Shown: positions 16,326 to 42,032, numbered from the stretch's first letter. The stretch: DNA of 43,306 bases from a virus (IMGVR_UViG_3300025133_000025), one strand, 5' to 3'. The notes: generated from the letters alone by a model not told the origin. Numbers and translations: made by a program.

Positions 16326-16372
16326 CCTGCCTCCAATATGTACATTGTATCACGCAGTTAAGGGCGTGGAAC

Positions 16373-16780: not shown

Positions 16781-16791
16781 CTCAACACTCT

Positions 16792-19094: not shown

Positions 19095-19097
19095 GCT

Positions 19098-19352
19098 CTA
19101 CTCCGCTTCTTTGTCTGCTGTCTTCGGCTTGCGCTTCCTGCTACTCGGCTTGCGCTTTGAAGGTAGGCGCTTCTCAGCAAGTGAAGGTAAGGCTGGTGCT
19201 GGTGCTAAATCTACAGGCTTAGCTTCAACAGGCTCAGGCTTAGCTTCAACAGGCTCAGGCTTGGCTTCAACAGGCTCAGGCGTTGGAAGAACCCAACCTG
19301 CTTGCCTCTCACGCTGTGAACGCTTAATTCGTGCTCGTGAACGTTTACTCAT
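19098..19352 (-). CDS. Small basic protein with (PEPVEAK)x3 repeat
   Basis: 84 aa, Lys/Arg-rich termini; the central triple PEPVEAK is encoded by a 21-bp tandem repeat; SD AGGAGA upstream. Confidence 0.45.
   Translation of the reverse strand: MSKRSRARIKRSQRERQAGWVLPTPEPVEAKPEPVEAKPEPVEAKPVDLAPAPALPSLAEKRLPSKRKPSSRKRKPKTADKEAE
19214..19276. repeat. 21-bp tandem repeat x3 (CAGGCTTAGCTTCAACAGGCT), coding
   Basis: Three consecutive near-identical 21-mers inside ORF 19098-19352; one substitution in copy 3. Confidence 0.8.
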
Positions 19353-19363
19353 CTTTGTGTCTC

Positions 19364-20269: not shown

Positions 20270-20838
20270 CTATGATCCTCAAATTTATAACCAAAATATT
20301 CAAAATCTTCTGCAAAGCGGTCATAGATAATTCTTATTAAATCATCACTATCATAGTAGAGGCTATAATGTGGAAGCCTTTTACTCGCGACTTTATTATT
20401 ATTTTTGTGTGGCAACAAAGTTGTTATACCAATCGCTTCACCAGCAATGGCCCAATCAGCTGTAAGGTTTTCAAACCTCCCAATAAAATCTGCTGCTATT
20501 TCTCCACTGTTGTCGCGAAAGAAATCTAGCTGATGTTGCTTCTCTGTTGGATGAACCTGAAAGGTGGTGGTGTGTTTAAATGCATGCACAAAATCATGAA
20601 ATGTATTTTTCTTGTGCAGGCCTTTTCGATTAGCGTACAATGATACAGCGCGATCAAACGGATTCCTAACAAAGCCAAATTTATAAAAGCTTGAAAATTC
20701 TTCAGCAGTTATTTCACTTTGATATTGTTTTAGATCTTTGTGGGGATTTTTCTCATCACCAAGAATTGTGCGTATTGATTGTGATGCTGTTTTTGGAACA
20801 GCTACAAAAATAGTCCTATGCTTATAATTAACGCTCAT
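20266..20838 (-). CDS. Carbohydrate sulfotransferase (Sulfotransfer_2-like)
   Basis: 5'-PSB-like VAVPKTASQSI and 3'-PB-like RNPFDRAVSLY motifs; 190 aa. Confidence 0.55.
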   Translation of the reverse strand: MSVNYKHRTIFVAVPKTASQSIRTILGDEKNPHKDLKQYQSEITAEEFSSFYKFGFVRNPFDRAVSLYANRKGLHKKNTFHDFVHAFKHTTTFQVHPTEKQHQLDFFRDNSGEIAADFIGRFENLTADWAIAGEAIGITTLLPHKNNNKVASKRLPHYSLYYDSDDLIRIIYDRFAEDFEYFGYKFEDHR

Positions 20839-23800
20839 CGAGAAAGCCTCGAATACTTTGTGCCAGTCATGATTTCAGGCTGCTTGAAGCCCATACGCTC
20901 TAAATCATACTTTGGATAAACCACTTCTTCACCAATCCCAGCGAACTCATGACCAACCCGGAAGATTGTATTTGCAAGCTCTGCAATCTCTTCATCAGTT
21001 ACGTCATTCCAGTCCTTATCCTTGAAAAATCGCTTCTTGCCTTGCTCTTGCTCAAGATAGAGGCATGACCATTGCTTATCCCACATATCACGAAATTGCT
21101 TAACTTTCGCAGGGATGTCAGCCCATGAATAATGCCACACGCATGGCATATCTTCGATGATTCGCTGCACAACACTCTCATATGCAATTGGATCTGTCAG
21201 GCGCAAGCGTTCAATATCAGCTGTCCAGAAATTTTGTGTCGGTGTTGATTGATAAGTATACGAATTAACATACTCACATCCATCACTCATGCCTGTTGCA
21301 GCATAAATTCTGCCATCAGGAGCCTGCCGACGTGCTCCAGCGTTAATTCCGTGTGTAATTAATGGATCGTTCTTGGAAAGGCGCCACTTCCATAGGTGCC
21401 TATCTCCACGGAGGTGCTTAGTGTCGCCCCAAAGTTCAACAACAGGCAACGCAAGGACACCAAAATCAGAAGAAAACGTCTTTGTTAGCTTCTTAATCTT
21501 AAGATAGTCATTTTCGTGCACAATTTCGTCACCATCCATTTGCCAGAGGTAGTCTCCTGTGCATAAAGCACGTGCAAATGCCTTCTGTTGGCCATCAATG
21601 CCTGGCTCGTTGAAGTCCCACTCCTTTTGATAAAGTTGTACTCTATCATCATTTCCGAACGCTTCTTGCAGTTTTTCCCATGTTCCATCGGTAGAAATGC
21701 CATCTACTACAACAACTTCATCACAGAAGCCCAGCATTGATGTAATTGACTGTTCAAAAGGGTACTTCAGGGCATTAAATGTTGTTGTATAGCCTGAAAT
21801 GGACGGAAACTGCTCTTCAAACGGTTTTCTTAAAACGGCCAGTACTCTGTCATCGGGCTGCACATCCAAACTAACTGCGGGTTCCCAGATATCCATCACA
21901 TTGTTATACACAGTAGCAGCTGCAATGTTGTTAATACAAGGATTGTCTTTATCAACAACACACTGGTCCTTGTAGCAGGGTGCTGCGCAACCCTTTCGGT
22001 CAACTGCTTCAATAATAGTAAGCCTGTCAGAACCATATTCTGTATGGATCAATTTGCCAGTACACTCAGGGTTTGATGATCCAAAAAGCGCAACGCCAGG
22101 CACATCAAGGTGATTTGCGACGTGCATCGGGAATGAATCAATTCCTACAAATGCTGTTGCATCACCAATGATTCCGGCAGCTTCTGTAAATGTTGTTTTT
22201 CCGCGTAGGTCTTCCACACTGCGATACTCTGGATCGTCAGGGCCACCAATTTGAACAACCCTGACACCATTTGATCTAAGATTATCAATGACATCTTGCC
22301 AATAAGCATAGTGGCGTGCATGACCCTTCTTATAGCCTGGATGAATCACTACATATGGCGAAGCATTGCTAAAACCTTCCAGGGGATCAGTCACAATCCT
22401 GGGAAGAAGAGGGCCAGGCTCGAGACCGCAGTGCGCTGCAAACTCTTCAGCCAGATGCCGCTTGTTTCTGCGGTTGACCCAATTTGAGCCCTGATACTGG
22501 ACAAACAGGTCTGGTGTGTACACTTCGTCCCAAATCTTATTTGTCAGGTCTGGTGTATGCATCCACGGCTGGAATTCAATCCAGTTATACCCAAGATCCT
22601 TAACTACACCCTTGAAAACTGGTTTTGTGGCGATATAGGCTTCAACAGCATCTGCAGCTAGGCCAGTATCACTTATGAGATTATCAATCACACCAGTTGA
22701 TAAGAAGATGTCACCAGCAGATTGCGGCATGGTATAAAGAATCTTATGTTTGTCACCTGGAAGTATGTTATTTGCTACCCAATATTCAACACTGTTTTTC
22801 TGGAAAAACTCATGCGCAGATGCCTGCACTAAGTCAACAAATTTTCTGCCCAGTACCCCTGGATTATAATTTTCTGCAATTTCCTTACTGAGCTTTTTTG
22901 CCCATGCGGTGGGTGTTGAAGCTTTGCTATAGAAGCGACGCATGATAATCTTGGCATCGTCCAATGACGGCTCTGCCCACATTACACCCTCAGGGATAAC
23001 GCCTTGCCAAACGAATGATGCAGGAACTGGCACAGGTGTAACAGGAACTGGTAACCAACGACGCTTTGCTTCACCAAGAAATGTAAGGTGTCCTGACCAG
23101 TTAGTCGCAATTACAGGAAGTCCGCATGCAGCAGCTTCAATAATCGGCAAACCATATCCTTCACCGTGCGTTAGTGAAACAAATGCTTTAATCTTGGGAT
23201 GGTTGTAAAGTGCAGCAAGCTCTTTATCTGTTGCAAAACCAGAAACAAGATAGAGCTTACACTTTGGCTCATGGCCAACTTGCTGAGTAATCTCTTTTAC
23301 CAGAAGTTCTTTAAGTTCTGCTAATCGTGCTTGCACAATAAAGCGATCTGGAATACTATTTCGAATTGCCGCAATCTTAAGAACTAAACCAACATCTTCG
23401 TCATTATGAAACTCTTCATAGAAAGCTTTAATTGTGTTGGTGATATTCTTTCTATCCTGCCCAAAATTAACGTTTACACCCCACTGGCCAACAACAAGAA
23501 AATTAAAATCTGTTGAAAACAGTTCATCTGTAATAGATTCTGCTTGGGCACCAGGGAAAAAAGTATCAATCTTAACAGATTCTTCTACAATTACAATTGG
23601 TGTTGTAATTTGAATCTCATGCTCTTTACCAGCTTTATGATCGTAAACCTCATACCTAGTCTGCTCCATGACATTCTTGGAATGTTCTGACGGAACAACA
23701 ATCAGGTCCATTAGATTACACTGTGGAATCCACTCAGGCGCAATTCTATCAGTCTCGATTCCTGCAGTTACACCGATATTGAATTTTGCCCGACGGGCAA

Positions 23801-24077
23801 ATTCATTTGGAATCGTCACCTGCACAGACACATCAAACACAGCGTTAAACTGGTCTTCTGCTACCTGTGATTTAAGATTCTCCATCTTCCCGCATGCATT
23901 TGCATATCTGCTAAAGGCATGATCAGTGACGGGCAGCCAACTGCATTGTCCCCACGGAATTTGGTCAGCATATATGTCATACTGGCCTGCTTCCATCAAC
24001 GCATCAAGAATCTGGCGGGCGTGAACGCCGTAGCCGCTTGCTGTTAAAACTGGTCCGCGAAAATGCAGTCGTGTCAT
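20835..24077 (-). CDS. Multidomain glycosyltransferase: GT4 + GT9 (ADP-heptose heptosyltransferase-like) + GT2-like
   Basis: 1080 aa. GT4 motif FVSLTHGEGYGLPIIEAAACGLPVIATN. GT9 C-terminal motif AAGIIGDATAFVGIDSFPMHVANHLDVPGVALFG (compare GNDSGPMHLAAALGxPxVALFG). GT2-like segment with VVVVDGISTDGT and DGDEIVHEND (DXD). Confidence 0.65.
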   Translation of the reverse strand: MTRLHFRGPVLTASGYGVHARQILDALMEAGQYDIYADQIPWGQCSWLPVTDHAFSRYANACGKMENLKSQVAEDQFNAVFDVSVQVTIPNEFARRAKFNIGVTAGIETDRIAPEWIPQCNLMDLIVVPSEHSKNVMEQTRYEVYDHKAGKEHEIQITTPIVIVEESVKIDTFFPGAQAESITDELFSTDFNFLVVGQWGVNVNFGQDRKNITNTIKAFYEEFHNDEDVGLVLKIAAIRNSIPDRFIVQARLAELKELLVKEITQQVGHEPKCKLYLVSGFATDKELAALYNHPKIKAFVSLTHGEGYGLPIIEAAACGLPVIATNWSGHLTFLGEAKRRWLPVPVTPVPVPASFVWQGVIPEGVMWAEPSLDDAKIIMRRFYSKASTPTAWAKKLSKEIAENYNPGVLGRKFVDLVQASAHEFFQKNSVEYWVANNILPGDKHKILYTMPQSAGDIFLSTGVIDNLISDTGLAADAVEAYIATKPVFKGVVKDLGYNWIEFQPWMHTPDLTNKIWDEVYTPDLFVQYQGSNWVNRRNKRHLAEEFAAHCGLEPGPLLPRIVTDPLEGFSNASPYVVIHPGYKKGHARHYAYWQDVIDNLRSNGVRVVQIGGPDDPEYRSVEDLRGKTTFTEAAGIIGDATAFVGIDSFPMHVANHLDVPGVALFGSSNPECTGKLIHTEYGSDRLTIIEAVDRKGCAAPCYKDQCVVDKDNPCINNIAAATVYNNVMDIWEPAVSLDVQPDDRVLAVLRKPFEEQFPSISGYTTTFNALKYPFEQSITSMLGFCDEVVVVDGISTDGTWEKLQEAFGNDDRVQLYQKEWDFNEPGIDGQQKAFARALCTGDYLWQMDGDEIVHENDYLKIKKLTKTFSSDFGVLALPVVELWGDTKHLRGDRHLWKWRLSKNDPLITHGINAGARRQAPDGRIYAATGMSDGCEYVNSYTYQSTPTQNFWTADIERLRLTDPIAYESVVQRIIEDMPCVWHYSWADIPAKVKQFRDMWDKQWSCLYLEQEQGKKRFFKDKDWNDVTDEEIAELANTIFRVGHEFAGIGEEVVYPKYDLERMGFKQPEIMTGTKYSRLSR

Positions 24078-25345
24078 ACCTCAAAAACCTCAAGCTGTGT
24101 AGTGCGCTCACCATGTGTAACAACAGTTCGTTGAATTGCTGCATCCCACTTGCTAATCATTGTATCAATATCAAAGCGACGGCGGGCAGAGGCAGCAGCC
24201 TCAATGCCCATTGCTTTAAATTCTTCTGGACCATCATTCCACATATTGTACATGTATTCCATGGCATCACAAATTTGCTCATGCGATACATTATCTTCAA
24301 AGACATATGGAACAGGCTGCGTGCCAACGCAAGAAACTGCGGCAGGCCGTAAAAGAAGACCATTCAGTTTTCCAGTCTCCTTATCAGCTAACTGCTCTGT
24401 CATTCCGCCTGTCATTGTTGCAACAACAGGATTACCCGCCATCAGGCTTTCCAGTACAGACAGGCCAAAGCCTTCGGCATTTGAAATGTTGAATGTCACG
24501 TCAGTGGCGTTAATGAGATCGTTTATCTGCTCGCGGGACACAAAATTTGATGAAAGAATAACATCATCCTGCAATCCCAAGCGCTCTACGACGTTAATAA
24601 GATTTGGTCCCTCTTGGTCAAGAGGATTTGTATGCAAGAAGAGTTGAACCTTTCCCTGCACACCATCGACAGTGTCAATAAATTCACGAAATCCGAAAAG
24701 CAAGTCAGACGCTTTCTTGCGGCGGGCATTGCGGTTCATCCAGAAGATTGTGAATTTATCCTTATTTGGTCCAAGAATTTGAGCCCTGAGCTCACTTCTA
24801 CGTTCATCAGGGAGTCGCTTGAAGAGATCACTGGGTACTGCATGCGGCATGTACTCTGCGCGCTCAGCAAATCCAAGCTCTTCGACGACGGAGTGTGTAA
24901 GCTTGGAGATACACCCGATGAAGTCTGTTGACTCGTAAAAAGGCTTGTTGAATTCGGGAGCCGGGTTGTTATCCCAGACGTGCCAATAAAGGAGTGGTGC
25001 CACTGCTCGTACTTCATTTTCCATCTCCCAAAGCCATACGTAGAAACGTGGATCTGTGATGAACAAAACAGCATCAGGCCTGAAGTTCATGAGCATTGTT
25101 CTGATTACATTGGGGTCGCCGTAATTATTTACGGGATGCACAATCAGATCAGTCCCAAACTCTGGACTCTGGGTCGGTGTATAATCTCGATGAGCCTTCG
25201 CGCCTCCGAGATTCAAAACACTATAGCGTCCTGTTTTTACTAGACCCTCTGCAAGTAATTTTGCTTGCGTTCCAACACCTGAGGGTGATTCAATATGATC
25301 GCTAATTAAAAGCAATCGTGTCTTAGGCTGTTCTGTCATACTCAT
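24074..25345 (-). CDS. Glycosyltransferase family 4
   Basis: FNISNAEGFGLSVLESLMAGNPVVATMTGG matches the GT4 E-x7-E motif; 423 aa. Confidence 0.65.
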   Translation of the reverse strand: MSMTEQPKTRLLLISDHIESPSGVGTQAKLLAEGLVKTGRYSVLNLGGAKAHRDYTPTQSPEFGTDLIVHPVNNYGDPNVIRTMLMNFRPDAVLFITDPRFYVWLWEMENEVRAVAPLLYWHVWDNNPAPEFNKPFYESTDFIGCISKLTHSVVEELGFAERAEYMPHAVPSDLFKRLPDERRSELRAQILGPNKDKFTIFWMNRNARRKKASDLLFGFREFIDTVDGVQGKVQLFLHTNPLDQEGPNLINVVERLGLQDDVILSSNFVSREQINDLINATDVTFNISNAEGFGLSVLESLMAGNPVVATMTGGMTEQLADKETGKLNGLLLRPAAVSCVGTQPVPYVFEDNVSHEQICDAMEYMYNMWNDGPEEFKAMGIEAAASARRRFDIDTMISKWDAAIQRTVVTHGERTTQLEVFEV

Positions 25346-31144: not shown

Positions 31145-31294
31145 GTCCTGAAACGGAGCAATTGCTGGCCATTTTAAAAGAAATTGCCAGTACGGGTGAT
31201 TTACAAGAAGTTTATGATATTATGCCTGACTGCGGAGCTCCGCTGGACGCGGCGGTATGGAATTGGATTGAGGCAGGTTGCCCAGACGCTGATT
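31141..31294 (+). CDS. Possible small ORF (GTG start)
   Basis: GTGA overlap with the preceding stop; 51 aa ending at the TAG at 31292-31294, convergent with the kinase operon end. Confidence 0.25.
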
Positions 31295-32600
31295 AGTGAA
31301 AGCGAAACAGGCCAAGGTCAGCTGCGACAATTGCTCTGTCTGTCGGGCGAATAAGAACATTACCTCTATGCAAATCAACGAAGCGCATTCCATGTTTTTC
31401 GTACATGTAGTGAAGTGCATTCACAAGACCTGAGAGTCCTGACTTCTCCGCAGTTTTTTTCTGCATTTTCAAGATTGCATCCTGCGTTTCTGGATCTTTA
31501 CTTCCTTTAAAGTCTCTAGCAAAATACGCGCCAGCCTTATCAGCAATGCCATGTGCCTTCCAAGTTTGATGCTTGTCGTAACCCTTTGGCACAATCCCAG
31601 TTCGGACGCCAATCTTAACAGAGGCGTCCAGCCACTTTTTAAATTTAGGTATACCCTGTTCATTTTGCGACAGATCAGCAAATTTCCGCATATGCTGCGC
31701 GAAAGTCTCGGCGACCTTGTCACTAAGATTTAATGATTTGTAAAGCGCCTTAAGGATGATTGCAACCTTATCATCATCTTTCATTGCAATCCATAATAGA
31801 TCTTCTTTTGCTTCGCCATGCGGATTCTTTGGCCCCTTTGGGGCTTTTGGAATTTCCCATGGCTTTTCAATGCGTTTCAAATATTCACCAGCCTTGACAG
31901 CACCTGGAAGTTCATCAAGCTTCTCCATTAGAACAATGGGAAATTCTTTTCCAGTTCGCCTGATAAGCCAGACGCCATAAATCTTCGGAAAGTGTTTAGC
32001 GACATCTGGTGGCAATTGTTCATACAGGTTAGCAATGGTCTTATACGGTTCGATGTTGTCAGCACGGTTCGATGTGGGAATTTTTAATGCCATGGCCTGG
32101 CCGTTGTCAGGCATAAATTCAAAGACTGTGCCAAATGCACCGATGCCAAGAAAGGCGCCGACATCACCGGGCGGAAGAATCTTTTGCATGTGCCCTGAAA
32201 AAGCTTCGCCCTTTTCTTGACTAAAATATGTAGATGACGCACGCTTCAAGAAATCGTTTGAAAGATTAGCAGGGTTTTTCTTTGACGGCGTTTCAAGATC
32301 CGGATCGACGTAGATGGCGACTGCAGTCGGTTCCTGACCATGCTTTGTATCCAGGCTTCCACCCCTCCGCCGCCTCCTTCCGCCTACAGGCACTGTAGCT
32401 GGAAGTTCCTCTGCATTGATTGGACCGTGTGATGTAGGCGGCGTCTCAGGCCAGTCTTCCTTTTCTGCAACAAGGCCTGAATATTCCTTAACAACAGTTA
32501 CTGATATACTGTCAACATCATCATCTTCCTGATCATAGATATTTTCAATTACGCGATTGTAATTTTCAAGTGCGAGGAGCTGTGTTATTGTTGGAAACAT
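31293..32600 (-). CDS. Protein-kinase-like fold protein K1 (truncated ePK-like; ends 6 aa after the DLG)
   Basis: Gly-loop LGIGAFGTVFEF, AMALKI (VAIK-like Lys), catalytic loop VDLHRGNVLI, Mg-binding VAADLGLFRFH at the extreme C-terminus. Confidence 0.6.
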   Translation of the reverse strand: MFPTITQLLALENYNRVIENIYDQEDDDVDSISVTVVKEYSGLVAEKEDWPETPPTSHGPINAEELPATVPVGGRRRRRGGSLDTKHGQEPTAVAIYVDPDLETPSKKNPANLSNDFLKRASSTYFSQEKGEAFSGHMQKILPPGDVGAFLGIGAFGTVFEFMPDNGQAMALKIPTSNRADNIEPYKTIANLYEQLPPDVAKHFPKIYGVWLIRRTGKEFPIVLMEKLDELPGAVKAGEYLKRIEKPWEIPKAPKGPKNPHGEAKEDLLWIAMKDDDKVAIILKALYKSLNLSDKVAETFAQHMRKFADLSQNEQGIPKFKKWLDASVKIGVRTGIVPKGYDKHQTWKAHGIADKAGAYFARDFKGSKDPETQDAILKMQKKTAEKSGLSGLVNALHYMYEKHGMRFVDLHRGNVLIRPTDRAIVAADLGLFRFH

Positions 32601-33349
32601 TAGCGGAAAAGTCCAATATCTGAGACAACAAGCGATTTGTCAGTCGGGCGCACCATTATATTGCCGTGGTGCAGATCGTCAGGTTCGATATTCTGAAAAT
32701 CGATTAAATCTTCCATGGCATGATAGAACGTCGCCACACCTATGAACTCTGCAGTTGCAGCGTCAACATTTGACGTAAGGCTATAATCTGGTAGTTTGCC
32801 GGTTATAATCGCTTTACGCAGTAATTTCTCCATTTTGATCGGGAGAGGTTCAAGATATTCCATAAGGGTAATGACAAGACCTGAGTCAGGAATAAGCCAC
32901 GCTGCAGAAGGTCGACCTGATTCAGGAATAAGCCACGCAGCATAGATTTTCGGGAGGTGGCGGGCAGTTCCAGGCTTCGACGTGCCCTTTGCACGGGCCA
33001 CAAGTTTGTAAGCATCCGGCTCATCCTCACTGATTTTCAACGCCATCCTCGGCCCATGATCGGGAACGAAGTCCCAAACAACACCATAGGACCCCTGTCC
33101 AAGTACATCCTTGATTGTTCCTGCAGGCAAAAGTTGCTCCAGAGCAGACCTTACGTCAGCAGTGAAAATGCTATCGCGCGGAATACCATCAACATGCCCG
33201 GGTTCTGCAAGGGTCGGATCAACATAGATTTCTTTATATGCAAGATTTTGCACATGACCTGTTCGGGCACCTTGTTGTTCAAGCAATTGAACCATTGTAG
33301 GAAGCAGATCAATCATATTTGTAGAAGTTACCGATGTCAGCAACAACAA
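32600..33349 (-). CDS. Protein-kinase-like fold protein K2 (paralog; ends right after the DIG)
   Basis: LGQGSYGVVWDF, RMALKI, HLPKIYAAW, ITLMEYLEPLP, DDLHHGNIMVRPTD, VVSDIGLFR-stop. Confidence 0.6.
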   Translation of the reverse strand: MLLLTSVTSTNMIDLLPTMVQLLEQQGARTGHVQNLAYKEIYVDPTLAEPGHVDGIPRDSIFTADVRSALEQLLPAGTIKDVLGQGSYGVVWDFVPDHGPRMALKISEDEPDAYKLVARAKGTSKPGTARHLPKIYAAWLIPESGRPSAAWLIPDSGLVITLMEYLEPLPIKMEKLLRKAIITGKLPDYSLTSNVDAATAEFIGVATFYHAMEDLIDFQNIEPDDLHHGNIMVRPTDKSLVVSDIGLFR

Positions 33350-34283
33350 GGTGCCCGTCAGATTTACGAACCATTACATTATCATCATGCAAGTCCTGCC
33401 AGCTTATGCCATATCTTTCATGAATCTCTCTCAGCGCTTCGTAAAATGGCAGGATACCGAGAGATTCAAGTTTATCGTCACCTTCATCACCCAGGTTCTT
33501 CCAATGCGCACGAGATGTTGGAGTTATAGTGAGCATCGCCCGGTTATAATCAAACACATCAAGTGAGTTGTGCATTCTTGGCCCGGGCCTAATTCCAACC
33601 TCCTTGGCGGAATCAATAATCGCATCACGCAATCGAGCAGCCTGAGCATCATCCTCAAAATCATGGGGAGCGTTGAGGTTGTATGTTCGGCGAAGTCCTG
33701 CCACAGCGTGAGGCAATCGCTCTACCAATTCCGGCCGTGTTTCTGTATCAAGCAGGCCGAGGGTGATTCGCATAAGCCGGCCAACACGTTTATCACTTTG
33801 CACAAATTCTTCCCATGACATCCTATTTTCAGGATCCCCGCGGACCATGGCTGTCTTAATATTCTTTGGAAGCGGCGACAGGATTTCCATAAGCGTTATA
33901 ACAGTTTCTGTATCGACAGACCAAATGCCATAGATTTTCGGGAGGTGGCGAATCAGTTCCCGCGGCGCTGTGTCGTAAATCTTTTGAATTTCTTCGTAGG
34001 CCTCCGGCTCATCCTCACTGATTTTCAATGCCATCATAGGTCCATCGTCAGGCTTGAAACGGTAGACAGTACCAAATGAACCAGCGCCGAGGCGGGTCTC
34101 TACAACCCCGGGTGGCAGCACGTCAGCAAGGGGCGCCGGGGCGAGCCGATGTCCCCGAAGAAGACGAAGATCAACAGATCCTGGACCCTTGTTAATTTCC
34201 AGTTCTGGTGACACAAAGATTTCCTTTGTTGAAGCTGCCTTTGCAGCTTCAACAACCAGGGTTTTCATTGTGGGAAATGTCAT
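33309..34283 (-). CDS. Protein-kinase-like fold protein K3 (paralog)
   Basis: LGAGSFGTVYRF (canonical GxGxFGxV), MMALKI, HLPKIYGIW, ITLMEILSPLP, QDLHDDNVMV, VVADIGNFYKYD-stop. Confidence 0.6.
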   Translation of the reverse strand: MTFPTMKTLVVEAAKAASTKEIFVSPELEINKGPGSVDLRLLRGHRLAPAPLADVLPPGVVETRLGAGSFGTVYRFKPDDGPMMALKISEDEPEAYEEIQKIYDTAPRELIRHLPKIYGIWSVDTETVITLMEILSPLPKNIKTAMVRGDPENRMSWEEFVQSDKRVGRLMRITLGLLDTETRPELVERLPHAVAGLRRTYNLNAPHDFEDDAQAARLRDAIIDSAKEVGIRPGPRMHNSLDVFDYNRAMLTITPTSRAHWKNLGDEGDDKLESLGILPFYEALREIHERYGISWQDLHDDNVMVRKSDGHLVVADIGNFYKYD

Positions 34284-35326: not shown

Positions 35327-35402
35327 AACATATATAGTGTCCACGCTGCCATCTATGCCATGGTGTTTCGTGGCAACGATTTTTTCCAGAAATTTTTGTG
35401 CT

Positions 35403-35486
35403 GGCAGGGCTGTTCTGGTGGTGCAATCCTGGCAGAGCTGTTCTGGTGGTGCAATCCTGGCAGAGCTGTTCTGGTGGTGCAAATTC
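35403..35486. repeat. 28-bp tandem direct repeat x3 (GGCAGAGCTGTTCTGGTGGTGCAATCCT)
   Basis: Three head-to-tail copies; copy 1 has 1 mismatch and copy 3 diverges in its last 5 nt. Confidence 0.85.
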
Positions 35487-35698
35487 TCGAGAAGTTGTGC
35501 AGAGGCGTTGCGCGGCTTCGAGGCCTTTCTAAATCTCCAACAACCTATCTGAGGCCTTTCCGCAGGCCCTCGCCGGCCCGAGCTGGGTTGCGCCGACGGG
35601 CGGCTAGAAGGTCCCAACCTGGTATGGAAAGGCCCTGAGGGTGGTGTGGGGCAGGCCTTTCCATGGCGCCAGCACCAAGGCATGCCGTGCCGGCGAGG

Positions 35699-35806
35699 GC
35701 CTATCTTTCCGCAGGGCCTCCGACCACAAGATAGGTCTATCTTTCCGCAGGGCCTCCGACCACAAGATAGGCCTATCTTTCCGCAGGGCCTCCGACCACC
35801 AACCAC
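35699..35806. repeat. 36-bp tandem direct repeat x3 carrying the CTTTCCGCAG promoter upstream box
   Basis: GCCTATCTTTCCGCAGGGCCTCCGACCACAAGATAG x3. A fourth partial unit continues into promoter P1. Further degenerate copies of GGCCTTTCC(G/A) lie at 35554 and 35656. Confidence 0.85.
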
Positions 35807-35843: not shown

Positions 35844-35909
35844 AATAACATAAGGGGCACGGACCAACCGGCAATAAAGCTGGAAGGCCGGCCCCCTGGA
35901 GATACTATC

Positions 35910-36299
35910 ATGGCCAAGTGGAACCCCAGCTCGAAGGTGAACCAGAGCCACCTCCTGACCATCCTGCGCCGCGGCGGCAACGAGTACCTCGACATCGTCG
36001 AGCGCCTCTCCCACCGGGCCCAGAAGCCCAACGGTCCTGACGGCCTGAACGTGACCATCATCCGGGATGCGATCGAGCAGGGCTACCTCGCTACGGATGC
36101 TGAGGCCATCCTGTTCCCCTCCGAGGAGAACGTGAACAAGGCCAAGGTGGCCGCGGCCGAGGATGCCAAGGCGACGATGATCGACAACCTCCTGGAGCTC
36201 GGGCAGCAGGGAGCGGTCAACGCGATGATCCAGGCGGGGACGGTCAGCGCGGAGCTGGTCGCCGGCATCGAGGCCAGCCGGGCCGCCGAAGAGGCCTAG
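35910..36299 (+). CDS. MAK-family small protein, paralog 1 (unknown function)
   Basis: 129 aa; MAKWNPSSKVNQSH N-terminus shared with 3 other cassette ORFs; SD GGAGA 9 nt upstream; about 65% GC. Confidence 0.65.
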   Translation: MAKWNPSSKVNQSHLLTILRRGGNEYLDIVERLSHRAQKPNGPDGLNVTIIRDAIEQGYLATDAEAILFPSEENVNKAKVAAAEDAKATMIDNLLELGQQGAVNAMIQAGTVSAELVAGIEASRAAEEA

Positions 36300-36307
36300 G
36301 CCTGACA

Positions 36308-36336
36308 GGGCCGGCGGGGGCAACACCCGCCGGCCC
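36308..36336 (+). terminator. GC-rich hairpin (11-bp stem) after cassette 1
   Basis: GGGCCGGCGGG-gcaacac-CCCGCCGGCCC; no U-tract, so this may be an intrinsic-terminator variant or a processing/recombination site. Confidence 0.4.
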
Positions 36337-36393
36337 ACCCGTCTGGAGCTGGTCTCACCGGTCCTCAACCTCTCGGCTCCTCCACCCGGAGGG

Positions 36394-36413
36394 CCGAAGG
36401 TCCGGACCTTCGG
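36394..36413. repeat. Perfect 20-bp palindrome CCGAAGGTCCGGACCTTCGG
   Basis: Exact inverted repeat with no loop, in the inter-cassette spacer. Confidence 0.8.
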
Positions 36414-36469
36414 AGCCTAGGCTTTCCGCAGCCCTGCTGCCTAGGCCTTACAGCGTGGGCTGAGCTGGC

Positions 36470-36498
36470 TTTCCGCGGCACCACTGAAATGGTACAAT
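36470..36498 (+). promoter_or_regulatory. Cassette promoter P2: TTTCCG-N17-TACAAT with TGG upstream
   Basis: ggcTTTCCGcggcaccactgaaaTGGTACAAT; a near-duplicate of P3 including the downstream AAGGACGG(A/T)GGCCA. Confidence 0.6.
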
Positions 36499-36556
36499 AT
36501 AATTACAAGGACGGAGGCCATCATACAGATGGGCTGCCGATCCGACTGGAGCCACC

Positions 36557-36967
36557 ATGGCCAAGAAGAACCGCTGGAACCCCTCCTCCAAGGTCAACTG
36601 CAACCACGTCACGGGCATGCTCGCCAAGGGCACGGCGGAGTACAAGGACTGGGTCGGCCGGGCCTTCTCCGTCCCCGCCGACGCCGACGCCGAGTACTTC
36701 GAGGACATCATCCGCGAGGGCCACGAGGACGGCTACCTCACCGATGAGAATGTGGACACCCTGCTGGGTACGGGCCCCTCGACGAAGGACGTCCAGGCCG
36801 CCGCCGCCGGCAACGCCCAGGCCCAGATGATCTCCGGGCTGGCCAACGCCGGGCAGCACAGCGCGGTGGCCTCCATGATCGGCACGACCGTCTCGCAGGA
36901 CCAGGTCGACCAGGTCTACGAGGCGCTCAACCTGGACTTCGCCGCCTTGACCGCGCCGGAGGCCTAG
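36557..36967 (+). CDS. MAK-family small protein, paralog 2
   Basis: 136 aa; MAKKNRWNPSSKVNCNHVTGMLAKG...; the overlapping +/- ORFs at 36489-37024 are rejected as GC artefacts. Confidence 0.65.
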   Translation: MAKKNRWNPSSKVNCNHVTGMLAKGTAEYKDWVGRAFSVPADADAEYFEDIIREGHEDGYLTDENVDTLLGTGPSTKDVQAAAAGNAQAQMISGLANAGQHSAVASMIGTTVSQDQVDQVYEALNLDFAALTAPEA

Positions 36968-37049
36968 CCGGCCCAACCCTTCGCCCCGAGCACCATCGAA
37001 GCCATCGGCTACTAGCACCACCACAGTCGGCCTAGCAGGGAGGAGACTC

Positions 37050-37088
37050 TCTGTTAGGCCGGCCTAACAGCGACTGAGCAGCTCAGTC
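37050..37088. repeat. Two adjacent perfect palindromes (CTGTTAGGCCGGCCTAACAG; CGACTGAGC-a-GCTCAGTCG)
   Basis: A 20-bp exact palindrome followed directly by a 19-bp one, in the spacer after cassette 2. Confidence 0.8.
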
Positions 37089-37097
37089 GATTTAAGG

Positions 37098-37126
37098 TTT
37101 CCGCCGCACCACCGACTTGGTATAAT
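37098..37126 (+). promoter_or_regulatory. Cassette promoter P3: TTTCCG-N17-TATAAT with TGG upstream
   Basis: ggTTTCCGccgcaccaccgactTGGTATAAT. Confidence 0.6.
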
Positions 37127-37187
37127 TTAGGTATAAGGACGGTGGCCACCAAAACGGTGAATCACTGCTCCCGTTGGAGAATGAGAC

Positions 37188-37622
37188 ATGGCCAAGAAGA
37201 ACCGCTGGAATCCTGCCTCGCGTGTCAACTGCAACCACCTCACGGGGATGCTCCTGAAGGGCGACGACGCGTACCGGGACTTCGTCTCCCGCGCCTTCTC
37301 CGCCGCCCCCGAGGAGTTCGAGGCGATCGTCCAGGAGGGCCTCGACTGGGGGTACTTCACCTCGGACAACCGGGACGCCTTGCTCGGCACCGGCCCCTCC
37401 ACGGCCGCGATCTCGGAAGCCGCGGCGGGCAACGCCCAGGCGACGATGATCTCCGGCCTCGCCAACGCCGGCCAGCACAGCGCGGTGGCCTCCCTCGTCG
37501 CCGCCGGGACCTGCACCCAGGACCAGGTCGACCAGGTGTACGGCGCCTTGGAGCTGGACTACGCGGCCCTGATCGCCCCGCCGGCCCCCAAGGCGCCCAA
37601 GGCCAAGAAGGCCGCCAAGTAG
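37188..37622 (+). CDS. MAK-family small protein, paralog 3
   Basis: 144 aa; MAKKNRWNPASRVNCNHLTGMLLKG...; SD GGAGA upstream; Lys-rich C-terminal tail PKAPKAKKAAK. Confidence 0.65.
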   Translation: MAKKNRWNPASRVNCNHLTGMLLKGDDAYRDFVSRAFSAAPEEFEAIVQEGLDWGYFTSDNRDALLGTGPSTAAISEAAAGNAQATMISGLANAGQHSAVASLVAAGTCTQDQVDQVYGALELDYAALIAPPAPKAPKAKKAAK

Positions 37623-37642
37623 CCTAGCCGGCTGCCACTGAC

Positions 37643-37667
37643 GGACCGGCCCCTCCTGGGCCGGTCC
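37643..37667 (+). terminator. GC-rich hairpin (10-bp stem) after cassette 3
   Basis: GGACCGGCCC-ctcct-GGGCCGGTCC; followed by GGCCTTACAGCG and GGCCTAACAGCG half-site copies. Confidence 0.4.
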
Positions 37668-37767
37668 ACCGGCTGGGCCTTACAGCGTGAGCTGCGCGAA
37701 CGCTGATAGTCCTCTCTGAGCCGGCCTAACAGCGCGGGCTGAGCCCGCCGTCACAGTGCCACGAGGC

Positions 37768-37796
37768 TTTCCGCAGCAGGCCAACCATGGTATAAT
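37768..37796 (+). promoter_or_regulatory. Cassette promoter P4: TTTCCG-N17-TATAAT with TGG upstream
   Basis: ggcTTTCCGcagcaggccaaccaTGGTATAAT. Confidence 0.6.
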
Positions 37797-37829
37797 TTAG
37801 GTACCGGAATTGACCGGCTGGAGAACCCC

Positions 37830-38531
37830 ATGATCGATGCACTTACAATCTTCAACGCTTCCACGGATCGGCGGACCTACTGGCGCCTGAATCGTGAGGC
37901 GGGCGCTGCTACCCTGGATGAGGCGATCGCCTTGACCTGGGAGGACTTCTACCCGTACGAGCACATGCCCCAGGATGACGCCATCAACATGGATGGCATG
38001 GACGACATCTTCGAGGTCGGTGGACCGGAGAACATGGAGATCGTGACCCACGGCGGCGGGTGGTTCACCGTGGAGTACAAGAACGGTTGCTCCCAGGAGG
38101 AGGACACCCGCGACCACCCGGAGGAGTGGAACCAGTGGGAACAGGTCACCCGCCTCGTCAGCCAGGACTACCTCACCTTGGAGCGTGGGTTCACCGTCCT
38201 GGACGATACCCCGGCCGGCCACGGCGACGAGTTCGGTCGGATCTACTGGGTGATCGGCGACACCACGGAGCCGGGGACGGTCGATCGGAAGCCCAAGGTG
38301 CTCACCGGTGATGAGGTCATCGAGCGGTCGATCAAGGAGGGCATCCGGTCCGACCTCGAGTTGGAACAGCAGGTCCTGCCGCCGGTCGATCACCGGTGGA
38401 ACGACATGATGATGCAGAGCGCCGCCCTGGACATCCTGGCTGGTGTGACCATGGCCAGCATCCGCTACCACAGCTACGACGCCTGGGAGGATGTGGAGAT
38501 GCTGACCCGCCACTTCCACGGCAAGATCTAG
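37830..38531 (+). CDS. Acidic hypothetical protein (233 aa) in the cassette array
   Basis: SD GGAGAA upstream; D/E/W-rich; no family recognised; the antisense ORF 37797-38555 is rejected. Confidence 0.6.
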   Translation: MIDALTIFNASTDRRTYWRLNREAGAATLDEAIALTWEDFYPYEHMPQDDAINMDGMDDIFEVGGPENMEIVTHGGGWFTVEYKNGCSQEEDTRDHPEEWNQWEQVTRLVSQDYLTLERGFTVLDDTPAGHGDEFGRIYWVIGDTTEPGTVDRKPKVLTGDEVIERSIKEGIRSDLELEQQVLPPVDHRWNDMMMQSAALDILAGVTMASIRYHSYDAWEDVEMLTRHFHGKI

Positions 38532-38576
38532 AAGCCTCACCAGCTGGCTCAGCACCTGCGGCCTGGGGTAGCCTGG

Positions 38577-38598
38577 GCCGTAAGGCCGGCCTTACGGC
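38577..38598. repeat. Perfect 22-bp palindrome GCCGTAAGGCCGGCCTTACGGC
   Basis: Exact inverted repeat centred on GGCCGGCC, in the spacer after cassette 4. Confidence 0.8.
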
Positions 38599-38653
38599 GA
38601 AGAACAGCTCAGCCCCTCCCTTTCCTCCATACTTGGAAGCACAGACCGGCATG

Positions 38654-38682
38654 TTTCCGATGCATGACCGCCATGGTATAAT
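38654..38682 (+). promoter_or_regulatory. Cassette promoter P5: TTTCCG-N17-TATAAT with TGG upstream
   Basis: gTTTCCGatgcatgaccgccaTGGTATAATatattAGGAACCCC; a near-duplicate of P8. Confidence 0.6.
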
Positions 38683-38763
38683 ATATTAGGAACCCCGGCC
38701 GGTTGAATCAATGCCATGGCAGATGGCTGTCATGGCAACTGGCCACCTACTACAGGAAGTGAC

Positions 38764-39591
38764 ATGAACTGGAATAGCATCGCAAATGACCTTGACATCT
38801 GGAACAGTGGTGGGAAGATGAAGGCGACGATCTCGCTCTTCTTGAACAGCCCCGGCATCAGCCACGCCCTGTACATCATCTTCCTCGCTGTCTACGGTGG
38901 CTGGAACATGTTGTCGACCGCCGCGCTCCGCCAGGAGCCTGGCCCGTCGGCGTCCCAGAAGTACGAGTTGACCGACTACGTCAACAAGGACACCATCCTC
39001 AGCATCGTCAACGACGCCCGTCAGAAGGCCTGGAGCGATCTGGAGATCAGTGGTATCATGCCCGAGTGGAAGGTGGGCGGCATGGCGGAGCCGGCCTGCG
39101 CGATCCGGCCGGGCGAGGACAATCCAACCCTTGTCTTCAACAAGATCCAGTTCATCAAGCAGGTGCGTGAGGCCCACGGCTTGGGACTGAAGGAAGCGAA
39201 GAAGGCTGTGGAAGACATGTTGGTGCAGGCTTCCGGGCTCGTCGCCTTCCGTGGAGTCCGTGGGAAGCTCATTGAGCACATGCCGACGACTTTCCTCCAC
39301 ATCACGAACGTCCACATCAATCTCGACGAGCTCGTCTCCCTGCCCATCAACTATCGGCCGCATGCCTACGAAGGAGAGCGCAGGTCGCGTGACAACTCGA
39401 CCAGCGATGACACCTTCTACACGGTGGGGTGGTACTGGGAGAACGTGCTCTCCTTCGAGAACAAGCGACTCTTCCGGAGCTTGGACCACTTCCGAAGCAC
39501 GTCCATCGCAGTGAAGCGGCGCGCCCAGTACCTCAACCACGAGGGTGCCTGGGTTTACGTCGATGATGTCGCCACCGAAATCCTTGCCTGA
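38764..39591 (+). CDS. Membrane-anchored protein with a ribosomal bL12 (L7/L12) C-terminal-domain-like segment
   Basis: The start was chosen at MNWNS (SD AGGAAG 5 nt upstream); the longer frame starts at 38716. TM helix [45 protein letters not shown] aligns to E. coli bL12 [26 protein letters not shown] (GLGLKEAK identical). Confidence 0.55.
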   Translation: [275 protein letters not shown]

Positions 39592-39613
39592 GTGAAGGGG
39601 TTCCTCGGCGAGG

Positions 39614-39653
39614 GGCCCTGGGCCTGCTGTCTTCGGATGGCAGGCCCAGGGCC
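39614..39653 (+). terminator. GC-rich hairpin (14-bp stem) after cassette 5
   Basis: GGCCCTGGGCCTGC-tgtcttcggatg-GCAGGCCCAGGGCC. Confidence 0.45.
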
Positions 39654-39693
39654 TATTAGCGCTTCGCGCCGAAGGCCCCAAGACGCAGCTGGC

Positions 39694-39722
39694 TTTCCGC
39701 CGATCTACCGTGTTTGTATAAT
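39694..39722 (+). promoter_or_regulatory. Cassette promoter P6: TTTCCG-N17-TATAAT (TG adjacent)
   Basis: ggcTTTCCGccgatctaccgtgtttgTATAAT; downstream ATAAGGGGCGC resembles the P1 leader. Confidence 0.55.
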
Positions 39723-39743
39723 AATACTATAAGGGGCGCAGGT

Positions 39744-39759
39744 GCTGAAATATTTCAGC
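39744..39759. promoter_or_regulatory. Perfect 16-bp palindrome GCTGAAATATTTCAGC in the P6 leader (operator-like or leader hairpin)
   Basis: Exact inverted repeat about 15-30 nt downstream of the predicted TSS and 25 nt upstream of the SD; a second CTGAAA...TTTCAG palindrome lies at 40265. Confidence 0.45.
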
Positions 39760-39794
39760 AGTTGTTATAAACAGCCCCGACATGGAGAGAAGAC

Positions 39795-40190
39795 ATGGCT
39801 AAGAACCGCTGGAACCCTTCGAGCAAGGTCAACTGCAATCACATCACCGGGATGATCGCCAAGGGTGACGCCGAGTACAAGGACTGGGTCGCCCGGATCT
39901 TCGGCTCGAACAACGACACCTTCGCCGACCTGGTGACCGAGGGCAAGACCGCGGGCTACCTCACCGCCGAGAACTCCAACTTCCTGCTGGGCACGTCGGC
40001 CAGCACCCCGGCTGTGAAGGCGGCCGCCGCGGCCGACGCCAAGCGCAGCATGGTCATCGGCCTGCTGGGTGCGGGACAGGACACGGCGGTCGATTCGCTG
40101 ATCCAGTCCGGGCAGGTGGACCAGGAGTTCGTCGACAGCATCCGCGCGGAAATCGTGGATGCTGAGGAAGCTCGCCGCTCGTCGAAGTAG
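39795..40190 (+). CDS. MAK-family small protein, paralog 4
   Basis: 131 aa; MAKNRWNPSSKVNCNHITGMIAKGDAEYKDWVARIFG...; SD GGAGAG upstream. Confidence 0.65.
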   Translation: MAKNRWNPSSKVNCNHITGMIAKGDAEYKDWVARIFGSNNDTFADLVTEGKTAGYLTAENSNFLLGTSASTPAVKAAAAADAKRSMVIGLLGAGQDTAVDSLIQSGQVDQEFVDSIRAEIVDAEEARRSSK

Positions 40191-40198
40191 AGAAACGC

Positions 40199-40226
40199 CA
40201 GGCCGGGGGCTTCGGTCCCCGGCCGT
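40199..40226 (+). terminator. Hairpin GGCCGGGGGC-TTCG-GTCCCCGGCC (UUCG-type loop) after cassette 6
   Basis: 8-10-bp GC stem immediately after the stop; a CCGTACGG palindrome and a GCTGCTTTT run follow. Confidence 0.5.
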
Positions 40227-41238
40227 ACGGCGCTGCTTTTCAAAGCTCTTCGGCGCAGCCAGCGCTGAAAGACCGGTCTTTCAGAGAAAGCAGCTGAGCC
40301 CGCAGTCCTGGCCACAGCTCCCTGCCTGGCAACATTCCGACGCTGTCCAGCTTTCGGCAGCCTACATCACCTTCCGATGCGGCTCAGCACTGCAATGTGC
40401 TGAAAAGACTGCAATTTTGCTGCCCACTGCCCTGCCGATGCTGAATGTGAGATTCGAGGCATCTGCTCTTCGCTGCAGCAATCATATGAATACTATGCCC
40501 ATCCCGGTTTTTCACTATACCCGCCGGGATAGAAAGCAGGCTGGCCCATGCGCTGGCCTCGGCAGCCCATCGATGCAGCGGAAGCAGACGGTGTGGCGCT
40601 ATGATATCATTCCCAGCAAAACGCCACCAGACCTGCCGTGCCGCGACGCTCTGCGCTCTCCCTTCGCAACTCTGCTCCCGGCTTCTGGCGCTGCGCTCTG
40701 TAGTTGCGGGCACCACTCCACCCATTCTTGTTAGGCTTGAAAACCTTATCAGGCCATCTCGTCAGCTCCCATTTTGTGAGTTTGCATATGAATCAGTAGC
40801 GCCAGCTGTTCTTCCCTATTTGCAATGTGAAGAGCTGCTCAGTGTTGTCCGAGCTGTAGACATTTTGTTGTGTGATGTTAAAGGCTTAGGGCTCTGCTGC
40901 TGTCCCTGCAGCGTTGCTCCACCCCGCAGCGCCAAAGCAGGGAAACAGCATATGCTGATATCATAAAGCACACAGAGCTTACAGCACCAGCAGAGAAACG
41001 AGGTTTAGGAGTTGGGAGTTGTGGTATAGAACCTATCCTATTGGAGTCTATTGGTTTATCTGTTAGTTAGTTGTTGGTTCTGATACCATCAAAGGCACGT
41101 TGTATTGTAGCAAGAGTATATGAATGAGGCTGCCCAGCATTTCCGGCTGACCAAATTGGTAGGCTGCAGGGCAAGCCGCGTGAGTTCGGACTGTTGGATT
41201 GCAGTCCTGATGATATCTTCTGGCAACATCCACAGTAA
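40227..41238. other. About 1-kb apparently non-coding region with palindromes (candidate structured RNA or decayed cassettes)
   Basis: Only low-complexity R/S/P/C-rich ORFs on either strand (40159-40734, 40601-40966, 40384-40725). Contains the CTGAAAGACCGGTCTTTCAG palindrome and several short hairpins. GC is intermediate. Confidence 0.4.
40265..40284. repeat. Perfect 20-bp palindrome CTGAAAGACCGGTCTTTCAG
   Basis: Exact inverted repeat; shares CTGAAA/TTTCAG arms with the 39744 palindrome. Confidence 0.8.
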
Positions 41239-41266
41239 TTTCCGTGTATGAATTCACTGTTATAAA
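41239..41266 (+). promoter_or_regulatory. Cassette promoter P7: TTTCCG-N16-TATAAA with TGT upstream
   Basis: aaTTTCCGtgtatgaattcacTGTTATAAAat; AT-rich context. Confidence 0.5.
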
Positions 41267-41304
41267 ATAGAAATAGGTGAGAATGTTCCACCGAGGAGAT
41301 AAGC

Positions 41305-41604
41305 ATGAGCGATAACAGGGACTTCCCAACGATTCGTCGCCTGATTGGTGTCATTGAGGACGCATCTTCTGCTGAGCAGATTATCCTCAACAACAGGGTT
41401 TTGGGCGATCACCTCGGCGGAATTATCCGCATTCGGAATGAGGGCGTGATCAGGAATCTCTACTTTGGCAACGCATCCTCCGAAGGCGCCCTCGATGCTT
41501 TGATTGCGCTTGTTGAAGCTATTCGATCCGAAGCTGCCCACGAATTGGCTGGGCAGGGTGTGGATGTCAGGCCGGTTTCAGATGCAACGAAGATTTCCGA
41601 CTAA
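41305..41604 (+). CDS. Hypothetical protein (99 aa)
   Basis: SD GAGGAG 7 nt upstream; the stop overlaps the -35 box of P8. Confidence 0.55.
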   Translation: MSDNRDFPTIRRLIGVIEDASSAEQIILNNRVLGDHLGGIIRIRNEGVIRNLYFGNASSEGALDALIALVEAIRSEAAHELAGQGVDVRPVSDATKISD

Positions 41605-41622
41605 CAACCGCCATGGTATAAT
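41594..41622 (+). promoter_or_regulatory. Cassette promoter P8: TTTCCG-N17-TATAAT with TGG upstream
   Basis: aTTTCCGactaacaaccgccaTGGTATAATatacctAGGAACCCCC; a duplicate of the P5 module. Confidence 0.6.
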
Positions 41623-41657
41623 ATACCTAGGAACCCCCAACCCAAGCGAGTACTAAC

Positions 41658-42032
41658 ATGGCCGCCCGCACACTTTCCGACCGCTTCTCAGAGTTCATCC
41701 ACTTCGAGTACGGTGATGGCAACGGACGACTGAACCTGCTCGAAGAGGCCATCAAGCGAGTAGATGAGCCCCATTACGCGCAGAACAACTCACACTACTA
41801 TGTGCGACCCGACGGATCATGGGGAGCTCGCCCGCCGCTCTCGATGGGGCCGCGCGACTCGTACGAGTCGCGCGGCGGGATGCCGGCTTTGACATACGAT
41901 CCGAAGTATGTCTTCTGGCCCGAGGACGGATTCGTGTACGTGCGGTCGCGTGAGGCTGCTATCGAGCTCGTGACGATCATGGTCCTCCACAACGCCCGCA
42001 TCGCGGTGCGGGTGCTGGAAATCATGTCCTGA
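41658..42032 (+). CDS. Hypothetical protein (124 aa), GC-rich
   Basis: ORF directly downstream of P8; about 58% GC; weak SD. Confidence 0.5.
   Translation: MAARTLSDRFSEFIHFEYGDGNGRLNLLEEAIKRVDEPHYAQNNSHYYVRPDGSWGARPPLSMGPRDSYESRGGMPALTYDPKYVFWPEDGFVYVRSREAAIELVTIMVLHNARIAVRVLEIMS

Follow-up and report, generated by a model that had tools for sequence, protein, structure and literature searches.

A non-coding stretch with a putative dead-promoter boundary in the cassette array of an uncultured marine phage

What occupies the roughly 1 kb of DNA between the sixth cassette of a phage early-gene array and the promoter called P7, in a genome that is otherwise ~93% covered by open reading frames (ORFs)? 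A preliminary description, made from the sequence alone, had suggested either a structured RNA or a "cassette graveyard". We followed up both suggestions over the whole stretch of DNA analysed (43,306 nt, IMGVR_UViG_3300025133_000025, hereafter the window). The feature is real but ordinary: it is non-coding DNA, which appears to begin with a normal cassette boundary and continues into a segment flanked by a direct repeat.

The cassette array and its ORF-free gap

The window lies on a contig of 175–179 kb. The phage, which is uncultured, was recovered in separate assemblies from ENA, JGI and Logan metagenomes. The source is a marine phage with a backbone GC content of ~42% and an array of self-promoted early-gene cassettes. 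The small genes of the array lie on the plus strand from ~35.8 kb to ~42.9 kb. Seven of them are preceded by a near-identical putative promoter (GnTTTCCG-N17-TATAAT with a TGn extension), which scored 44–55 bits on the PWM, compared with 6.6 bits for the next-best site; judged at the sequence level, the seven flanking modules have the −35/−10 arrangement of a sigma-70-like promoter. P7 appears to be a diverged eighth copy of the array promoter and is predicted to drive the gene at 41305–41604, which has the Shine–Dalgarno sequence GAGGAG.

35812, 36467, 37095, 37765, 38651, 39691 and 41591 (+): the seven promoter copies (PWM)
41239–41266 (+): promoter P7, TTTCCG, 16 nt, TGT-TATAAA (PWM scans and sequence)

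Each cassette follows the order promoter, 5′ leader hairpin, orphan gene, GC hairpin and spacer. A stable hairpin (−16 to −31 kcal/mol) is located ~5 nt past the predicted transcription start in the leaders of P1–P3, P5 and P6. The short leaders of P4 and P7 form weak hairpins only, leader hairpins going with leaders longer than ~35 nt. The hairpin that follows each cassette gene is GC-rich and has no U-tract, and the spacers are 50–60% GC. Four of the orphan genes (35910, 36557, 37188 and 39795) are paralogues, 38–56% identical to gene 6 (39795–40190). Searches of public collections with the array proteins (the paralogue family, the product of gene 41305–41604 and a 191-aa ORF discussed below) recovered no homologue outside this phage.

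Several further observations concern the array and its surroundings. Positions 35900–40190 form a high-GC island (60–67% GC, GC3 of 0.85–1.0) in a 42%-GC phage, one possibility being that GC-biased gene conversion between the repeated cassettes produced it. The cassette-5 protein (38716–39591) matches the L7/L12 C-terminal domain (PF00542, E = 1.5e-7, residues 142–167). The genes at 31293–32600 and 33309–34283 (−), divergent from the adjoining array, gave weak protein-kinase-like matches in Pfam and PHROGs. Within a local GC rise at 16–19 kb lies a cluster of glycosyltransferase-like and PfkB-type sugar kinase genes (14370–25345, −).

20835–24077, 24074–25345, 19364–20269 and 14370–15356 (−): genes of the glycosyltransferase-like/PfkB-type cluster

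Towards its right end, the window contains a 28-bp perfect palindrome, GCCGCGCGACTCGTACGAGTCGCGCGGC, at 41849–41876, inside the gene at 41658–42032. Here contig L004 terminates in an inverted duplication, which the palindrome probably produced as an artefact of assembly. Contigs of several independent assemblies end between 41876 and 42281, three of them exactly at 42281, and the window goes on beyond this point; these ends suggest that strains are heterogeneous here or that a repeat lies immediately to the right.

The absence of a credible ORF over ~1 kb, as first described, was confirmed. The ORF-free gap spans 40191–41304 (1,114 nt, two implausible ORFs being discounted) and shows none of the GC3 periodicity seen in the adjoining genes. 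It is the largest in the 43-kb window and three times as long as the next, all other ORF-free gaps measuring ≤375 nt. The accompanying remarks on composition were also borne out: the ORFs found here overlap one another and are rich in R, S, C and P, and the GC content is intermediate (53% overall, ~58% on the left and ~45% on the right).

Cassette genes at 35.9–40.2 kb have a GC3 of 0.85–1.0, and the frame-specific GC spread reaches 0.38–0.58 in the flanking cassette genes, compared with ≤0.23 in the gap region. Between 40227 and 40720, phase-independent period-3 power did not rise above the null level. When trained on the cassette genes, a codon model scored gene 6 at +0.5 to +1.1 and the gap region at the null level. 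No Pfam match was obtained in a six-frame scan of the region. A six-frame PHROG scan matched only phrog_15012, a family of unknown function, at E = 0.028; this match runs across a stop codon and was read as chance. The check proposed for remnants of known genes was likewise empty: blastn and megablast against 50,697 phage records found no DNA homologue.

40986–41117 (+, third frame): phrog_15012 match (PHROG scan, E = 0.028)
40159–40734 (+): 191-aa ORF, called as a gene by metagenome pipelines; no periodicity

The 191-aa ORF was rejected as a real gene on three grounds: it has no periodicity, it matched only itself among 5.8 billion proteins, and it is frameshifted in strain L108 by a 2-nt deletion at 40346–40347, no gene being called there. 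The 191-aa protein annotated here by metagenome pipelines is therefore spurious, and the gene call should be corrected. Stop-codon recoding was also discarded: each of the six frames holds at least two kinds of stop codon, all three kinds being present over the six frames together, the real genes use all three, and no frame was opened by reassigning one stop codon. As for a decayed paralogue, neither tblastn of 20 window proteins nor an HMM of the four paralogues found a remnant in the six frames.

The gap region is non-coding DNA. A recently decayed copy of the high-GC3 genes next to it is excluded, because the region has no residual GC3 periodicity and matches neither the paralogue HMM nor the window proteins. 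It may never have been coding at all; it may equally be an old relic, possibly with an ORF at 40601–40966 as its last trace, or captured non-coding DNA.

A cassette boundary at the left edge

The first ~190 nt of the stretch contain most of the parts of an inter-cassette module, in the following order.

40201–40224 (+): GC-rich stem-loop of 10 bp, GGCCGGGGGC-UUCG-GUCCCCGGCC (folding against shuffles)
40265–40284 (both strands): perfect 20-bp CCGG-centred palindrome CTGAAAGACCGGTCTTTCAG (palindrome scan)
40293–40307 (+): GCTGAGC-type box GCTGAGCCCGCAGTC, 14/15 identical to 37738–37752
40331–40381 (+): putative promoter relic with −35-type boxes AACATTCCGACGC (40331) and AGCTTTCGGCAGC (40349) (PWM, alignment)
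40384–40403 (+): 7-bp hairpin TCAGCAC-ugcaau-GUGCUGA (folding z of −4.6)

The stem-loop at 40201–40224 directly follows the stop codon of the cassette-6 gene (39795–40190). It is of the terminator type, again lacks a U-tract, and has a predicted energy of −24 kcal/mol (z of −3.2), with none of 200 shuffles folding as well.

The palindrome belongs to a small family. Perfect 20-bp palindromes centred on CCGG occur exactly four times in the window, as compared with 0.03 expected in shuffles, and each is located in a different inter-cassette spacer: IG1, IG2, IG4 and the gap region.

36394: CCGG palindrome of spacer IG1, CCGAAGGTCCGGACCTTCGG
37051: CCGG palindrome of spacer IG2, CTGTTAGGCCGGCCTAACAG
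38578: CCGG palindrome of spacer IG4, CCGTAAGGCCGGCCTTACGG

The gap copy aligns positionally with the IG4 copy. Across the family, five of the eight stem pairs vary, always on both sides, and 100% of the cells are paired, a count of compensatory changes that is partly circular since palindromic symmetry was what the copies were picked for. Such variation points more to a hairpin or cruciform than to a protein-binding site of fixed sequence. Downstream of the palindrome, the box GCTGAGCCCGC is identical to spacer IG3 at 14 of 15 positions. The GCTGAGC word has nine copies in the window, six of them in cassette spacers, and two are found here (40293, +, and 40382, −).

The box at 40349 is identical to the −35-type box of P1 at 12 of 13 positions and ranks 9th among ~86,600 positions, outscoring those of two intact promoters. 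No TATAAT follows it at the canonical distance of 17 nt; the alignment places an 8-nt insertion here and CTCAGC instead of the −10 element. The hairpin at 40384–40403 occupies the position of the leader hairpin in intact cassettes and has GTGCTGAAA in common with the P6 leader. Local alignments of the region with the other spacers scored better than shuffles for IG4, IG3 and IG1 and were collinear with IG3 and IG4, and a third-order k-mer model grouped 40227–40384 with the spacers. Together, the alignments identify the left part as a homologue of the boundary module from which the −10 is missing, and the interval from 40191 to ~40405 is best described as an ordinary cassette boundary with a presumably dead promoter.

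The preliminary description had also pointed out that the arms CTGAAA/TTTCAG are common to the gap palindrome and to a palindrome in the P6 leader, and had suggested a common binding protein. The first part is real. The P6-leader palindrome TGCTGAAATATTTCAGCA is a perfect 18-mer (39743–39760) at the tip of the P6 leader hairpin, and CTGAAA-N0-12-TTTCAG occurs twice in the window, as compared with 0.17 expected. The second part is weak: one protein binding both palindromes is unlikely, because the half-sites are 2 and 8 nt apart and the palindromes belong to different structural classes.

The conserved box of the array promoters, GCTTTCCGCAGC, differs from the consensus −35, and it may be bound by a dedicated factor. 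This box also recurs without a −10 element, at 36420, at 35554, at 35703/35739/35775 within a 36-nt tandem repeat, and at 40349 in the boundary described above. Outside the array, such boxes were observed near 28896 (−) and 30749 (+). Two tandem arrays precede the first promoter, one of 3 × 28 nt (35401–35484) and one of 3 × 36 nt (35698–35805), and each 36-nt unit holds a CTTTCCGCAGG box within an inverted repeat.

The repeat-flanked segment and its possible origins

Beyond the boundary, the stretch is bracketed by a direct repeat of two blocks.

40302–40335 (+): left copy, blocks GCAGTCCTG ... CTGGCAACAT (exact-block search)
41201–41229 (+): right copy (exact-block search)

The flanking repeat exists: GCAGTCCTG is followed 10–15 nt later by CTGGCAACAT, and each block occurs exactly at only these two sites of the window on either strand. 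The first block of the right copy is the 3′ arm of a 7-bp hairpin (41188–41208), ~30 nt upstream of P7. First-order Markov simulations produced such a two-block repeat in 5 of 2000 runs, in a test designed after the repeat was seen, and plain Smith–Waterman alignment did not find the repeat significant (90 of 1000 shuffles). The copies bracket ~0.9 kb of featureless sequence ending at P7. A deletion between them would place P7 ~60 nt from the palindrome, the corresponding spacing being 56–57 nt in IG1 and IG4 and 28 nt in IG2, and recombination through the repeat would leave the predicted junction CCCTGCCTGGCAACATCCACAGTAATTTCCG.

The DNA between the copies is of near-uniform composition, its internal repeats do not exceed chance, and it resembles no other part of the window. 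K-mer classification of 40385–41238 was near-uniform under every model and thus silent on origin. One local deviation was examined: a G/T-rich stretch that gave no TRF array and a folding z of +0.67.

40998–41080 (+): G/T-rich, lower-GC stretch with GGAGTTG twice, CTATTGG twice and a GTTA/GTTG run (sequence)

An inverted repeat between 40282–40301 and 40889–40908 (85% over 20 nt) was considered as the ends of a MITE and set aside as marginal; in one sample, contigs break at 40889 and 40908, which a SNP at 40907 accounts for.

All 10 assemblies that reach the locus carry the segment where they cover it, without presence/absence polymorphism, and every recoverable copy is 99.6–100% identical. 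Relatives were sought more widely. Exact-pattern scans of IMG/VR for the palindrome and the promoter motif gave zero hits or single chance hits only, and the flanking proteins and the 191-aa ORF recovered only this phage in protein, metagenome and viral collections, leaving no relative in the phage database, IMG/VR, JGI metagenomes or protein collections.

Spacers elsewhere in the array are rearrangement hot spots among the strains. In strain L110 (ERZ27249191 k141_79544), the spacer DNA at 36979–37050, which lies between the cassette-2 stop codon and the CCGG palindrome, is swapped for 51 nt of unrelated sequence containing a GC hairpin of its own; the breakpoint falls exactly at the palindrome. 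In strain L107 (Ga0208013_1016960), the cassette-1 terminator hairpin has its upper stem and loop in the opposite orientation (36309–36335), GGGGGCAACACCC versus GGGTGTTGCCCCC between strains, a flip at a palindrome. Tandem-repeat copy number varies as well: L110 is without one 28-nt unit, and L107 is without 35572–35704.

The explanation that we favour, and to which we give an even chance, draws on the promoter-early stem-loop (PeSL) cassettes of T4-type phages (Arbiol et al. 2010, PMC2839356; Comeau et al. 2014, PMC4122927): a PeSL-like cassette entered by recombination at the boundary, lacks a working promoter and ORF, and is now carried as a spacer. The left ~190 nt would be a normal boundary whose −10 element was lost, and with this element gone no transcript would start at the relic. 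The following ~0.9 kb would be a cassette-sized module that entered at the boundary in the manner of the PeSL mini-circles and is now without a working promoter or ORF of its own. Probably transcribed only through read-through from P6, it would persist as a near-neutral spacer until P7 restarts transcription for gene 41305–41604. The insertion by recombination, the loss of the cargo and the neutrality are steps that we infer. Counting against this explanation are the lack of gain or loss of the segment in strains, the weakness of the repeat in the Smith–Waterman alignment, a hairpin count slightly above expectation and a coding-like signal in the ORF at 40601–40966. The term "cassette graveyard" therefore survives in part: a boundary with a probable promoter relic and a repeat-bracketed ~0.9 kb are present, and recently decayed cargo of the neighbouring type is not.

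The other suggestion of the preliminary description, a structured RNA, leads to a first alternative, which we consider unlikely: the segment would be a functional ncRNA (a long leader or trailer, a sponge or an antisense RNA) produced by read-through from P6 or from an unrecognised promoter. It would account for the largest ORF-free stretch of a densely coding genome and for its retention in all 10 assemblies, and read-through is plausible since the cassette hairpins lack U-tracts. The hairpins listed from the outset (40384–40403, 40501–40530 and the palindrome at 40265–40284) are all present, and perfect stems of at least 7 bp number three as compared with 0.96 expected, a marginal excess reached in 13 of 200 simulations.

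40501–40530 (+): 7-bp hairpin ATCCCGG-N16-CCGGGAT, real but not interpretable (stem scan, folding)

Against an ncRNA stand the ordinary folding energies. Z-scores in 150-nt windows range from −2.5 to +1.5 on the plus strand, similar to the coding flanks, one minus-strand window at the P7 edge reaches −3.8, and sub-segments of the region fold no better than shuffles. The proposed Rfam check on the whole window reached no family at the gathering score. At E ≤ 10 on 39500–41700, the sole match inside the stretch was the lncRNA family PART1_3 (14.8 bits against a gathering score of 40), which is at chance level; the strongest of the weak matches, P35 (30.6 against 70 bits), falls on the post-cassette-5 hairpin at 39604–39653, outside the stretch. 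ARAGORN found no tRNA or tmRNA, in line with the initial remark that no tRNA-like T-arm was seen on either strand, and with no Rfam match beyond chance and ordinary z-scores the structured-RNA reading itself found no support. Fixed and gapped PWM scans found no intact array-type promoter inside the region, and the scan for plus-strand terminators found none inside the stretch. The strains also tolerate a 2-nt indel and a SNP here. A possible second promoter relic at 41139–41164 (TTTCCG-N14-TAGGCT) was considered and judged too weak to claim.

More broadly, there is a small chance that the segment is functional, either as a long ncRNA of the early unit or as the docking or origin site of a new, GC-rich mobile promoter cassette with CCGG palindromes. 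If this were true, the orphan GCTTTCCGCAG boxes would be binding sites of a dedicated factor.

The coding-like signal raises a second alternative, improbable in our view, in which the ORF at 40601–40966 would be a genuine orphan gene of small size or a relic that is still expressed, and the region only partly non-coding.

40601–40966 (+): ORF of 121 aa whose middle, ~40690–40890, gives a weak coding-like signal (period-3, codon model)

Period-3 power of 5.4 and 4.95 at 40756–40887 lies just above the shuffle 99th percentile of 4.7, and a native codon model scored the frame of this ORF at 0.06–0.09 over 40690–40840, as compared with a null 99th percentile of 0.04. These native-type scores resemble the weaker parts of the true gene 41305–41604, and the codons are mostly T-ending, as in the phage backbone. 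Set against this, the ORF has no Shine–Dalgarno sequence, starts 220 nt from the presumably dead promoter and carries the signal over ~50 codons only, and its ends are rich in Cys, Arg and Ser. It found no homologue among 1.84 billion representatives, and it is absent from a collection of 15 billion proteins, so no pipeline called it. Its AF2 model reached a pLDDT of 44 with no residue at or above 70, a test that is uninformative here, because an orphan control gene (pLDDT of 55) folds poorly too.

Least probable of all is that the stretch acts in cis as DNA, whether as an origin of replication, as a site at which cassettes dock for capture, or as a binding sink for a factor that recognises the GCTTTCCGCAG box: orphan boxes without a −10 recur in the array and suggest a role beyond the −35, the right part is AT-richer with mini-duplications, and TATGAAT occurs four times on one strand within 770 nt, but the region contains one strong box only and no iterons, tandem arrays or internal repeats beyond chance, palindromic hexamers are not enriched, and the counts of TATGAAT, GATATC, CATATG and GCWGC fail multiple-testing correction.

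The whole array is a more unusual object than the gap and may merit more attention, given its seven near-identical promoters, its CCGG palindromes with compensatory arms and its orphan paralogues at a GC3 of ~0.95.

Comparison with known mobile cassette systems

Morons of lambdoid and other phages are promoter–gene–terminator units, autonomously transcribed and inserted between genes. They are not known to have a conserved flanking sequence that mediates their movement. The array cassettes resemble them in being, as far as their layout indicates, autonomous single-gene units placed between other genes. They differ in that their flanks form a repeated family and that the gap unit is without a gene.

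Integron cassette arrays consist of small cassettes parted by palindromic attC sites, in which symmetry is conserved over sequence. The phage array likewise combines small cassettes with palindromic sites that keep symmetry rather than sequence. In contrast to integrons, each cassette has its own promoter and the palindromes measure only 20 bp; one of the four palindromes contains words similar to the attC motifs RYYYAAC/GTTRRRY, in the wrong order, and no integrase was found among the ~20 window ORF proteins scanned. Both comparisons have a precedent in the literature on PeSL cassettes, where morons are discussed and the parallel with integrons is drawn (PMC2839356).

The closest resemblance is to the PeSL cassettes themselves. 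PeSL modules flank orphan ORFs in hyperplastic regions and recombine mutually (PMC2839356, PMC4122927), and in T4-type phages the cassettes mediate indels and excise and insert as mini-circles (PMC2839356, PMC4122927). The array shares with them repeated intergenic modules that combine a predicted sigma-70-type early promoter with a GGGG...CCCC-type stem-loop, placed upstream of database-orphan ORFs in a plastic region, and close strains here appear to differ in a similar way, by replacements with breakpoints in the modules. In the gap, the stem-loop feature is present as the hairpin at 40201–40224 (−24 kcal/mol) and the palindrome at 40265–40284, and the direct repeat around the segment fits the footprint expected of PeSL mini-circle integration.

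There are also clear differences. Upstream of the −35, PeSL modules have an AT-rich tract and the spacers here are GC-rich; the −35-type box, GCTTTCCGCAGC, departs from the canonical sequence and is also found alone; and two additional elements are present, the CCGG palindrome of 20 bp and a 5′ leader hairpin that is conserved. The gap module is without a −10 and is followed by ~0.9 kb without a credible ORF. PeSL hosts are T4-type myoviruses, and the observations here that bear on such a kinship are a contig of 175–179 kb and, from PHROGs, baseplate-wedge matches only.

If the PeSL-like explanation is right, the locus preserves a dead-promoter boundary together with an insert that has no gene and keeps its recombination repeat on both sides, and would offer a snapshot of promoter/stem-loop cassette turnover in a lineage far from the coliphages that carry PeSL.
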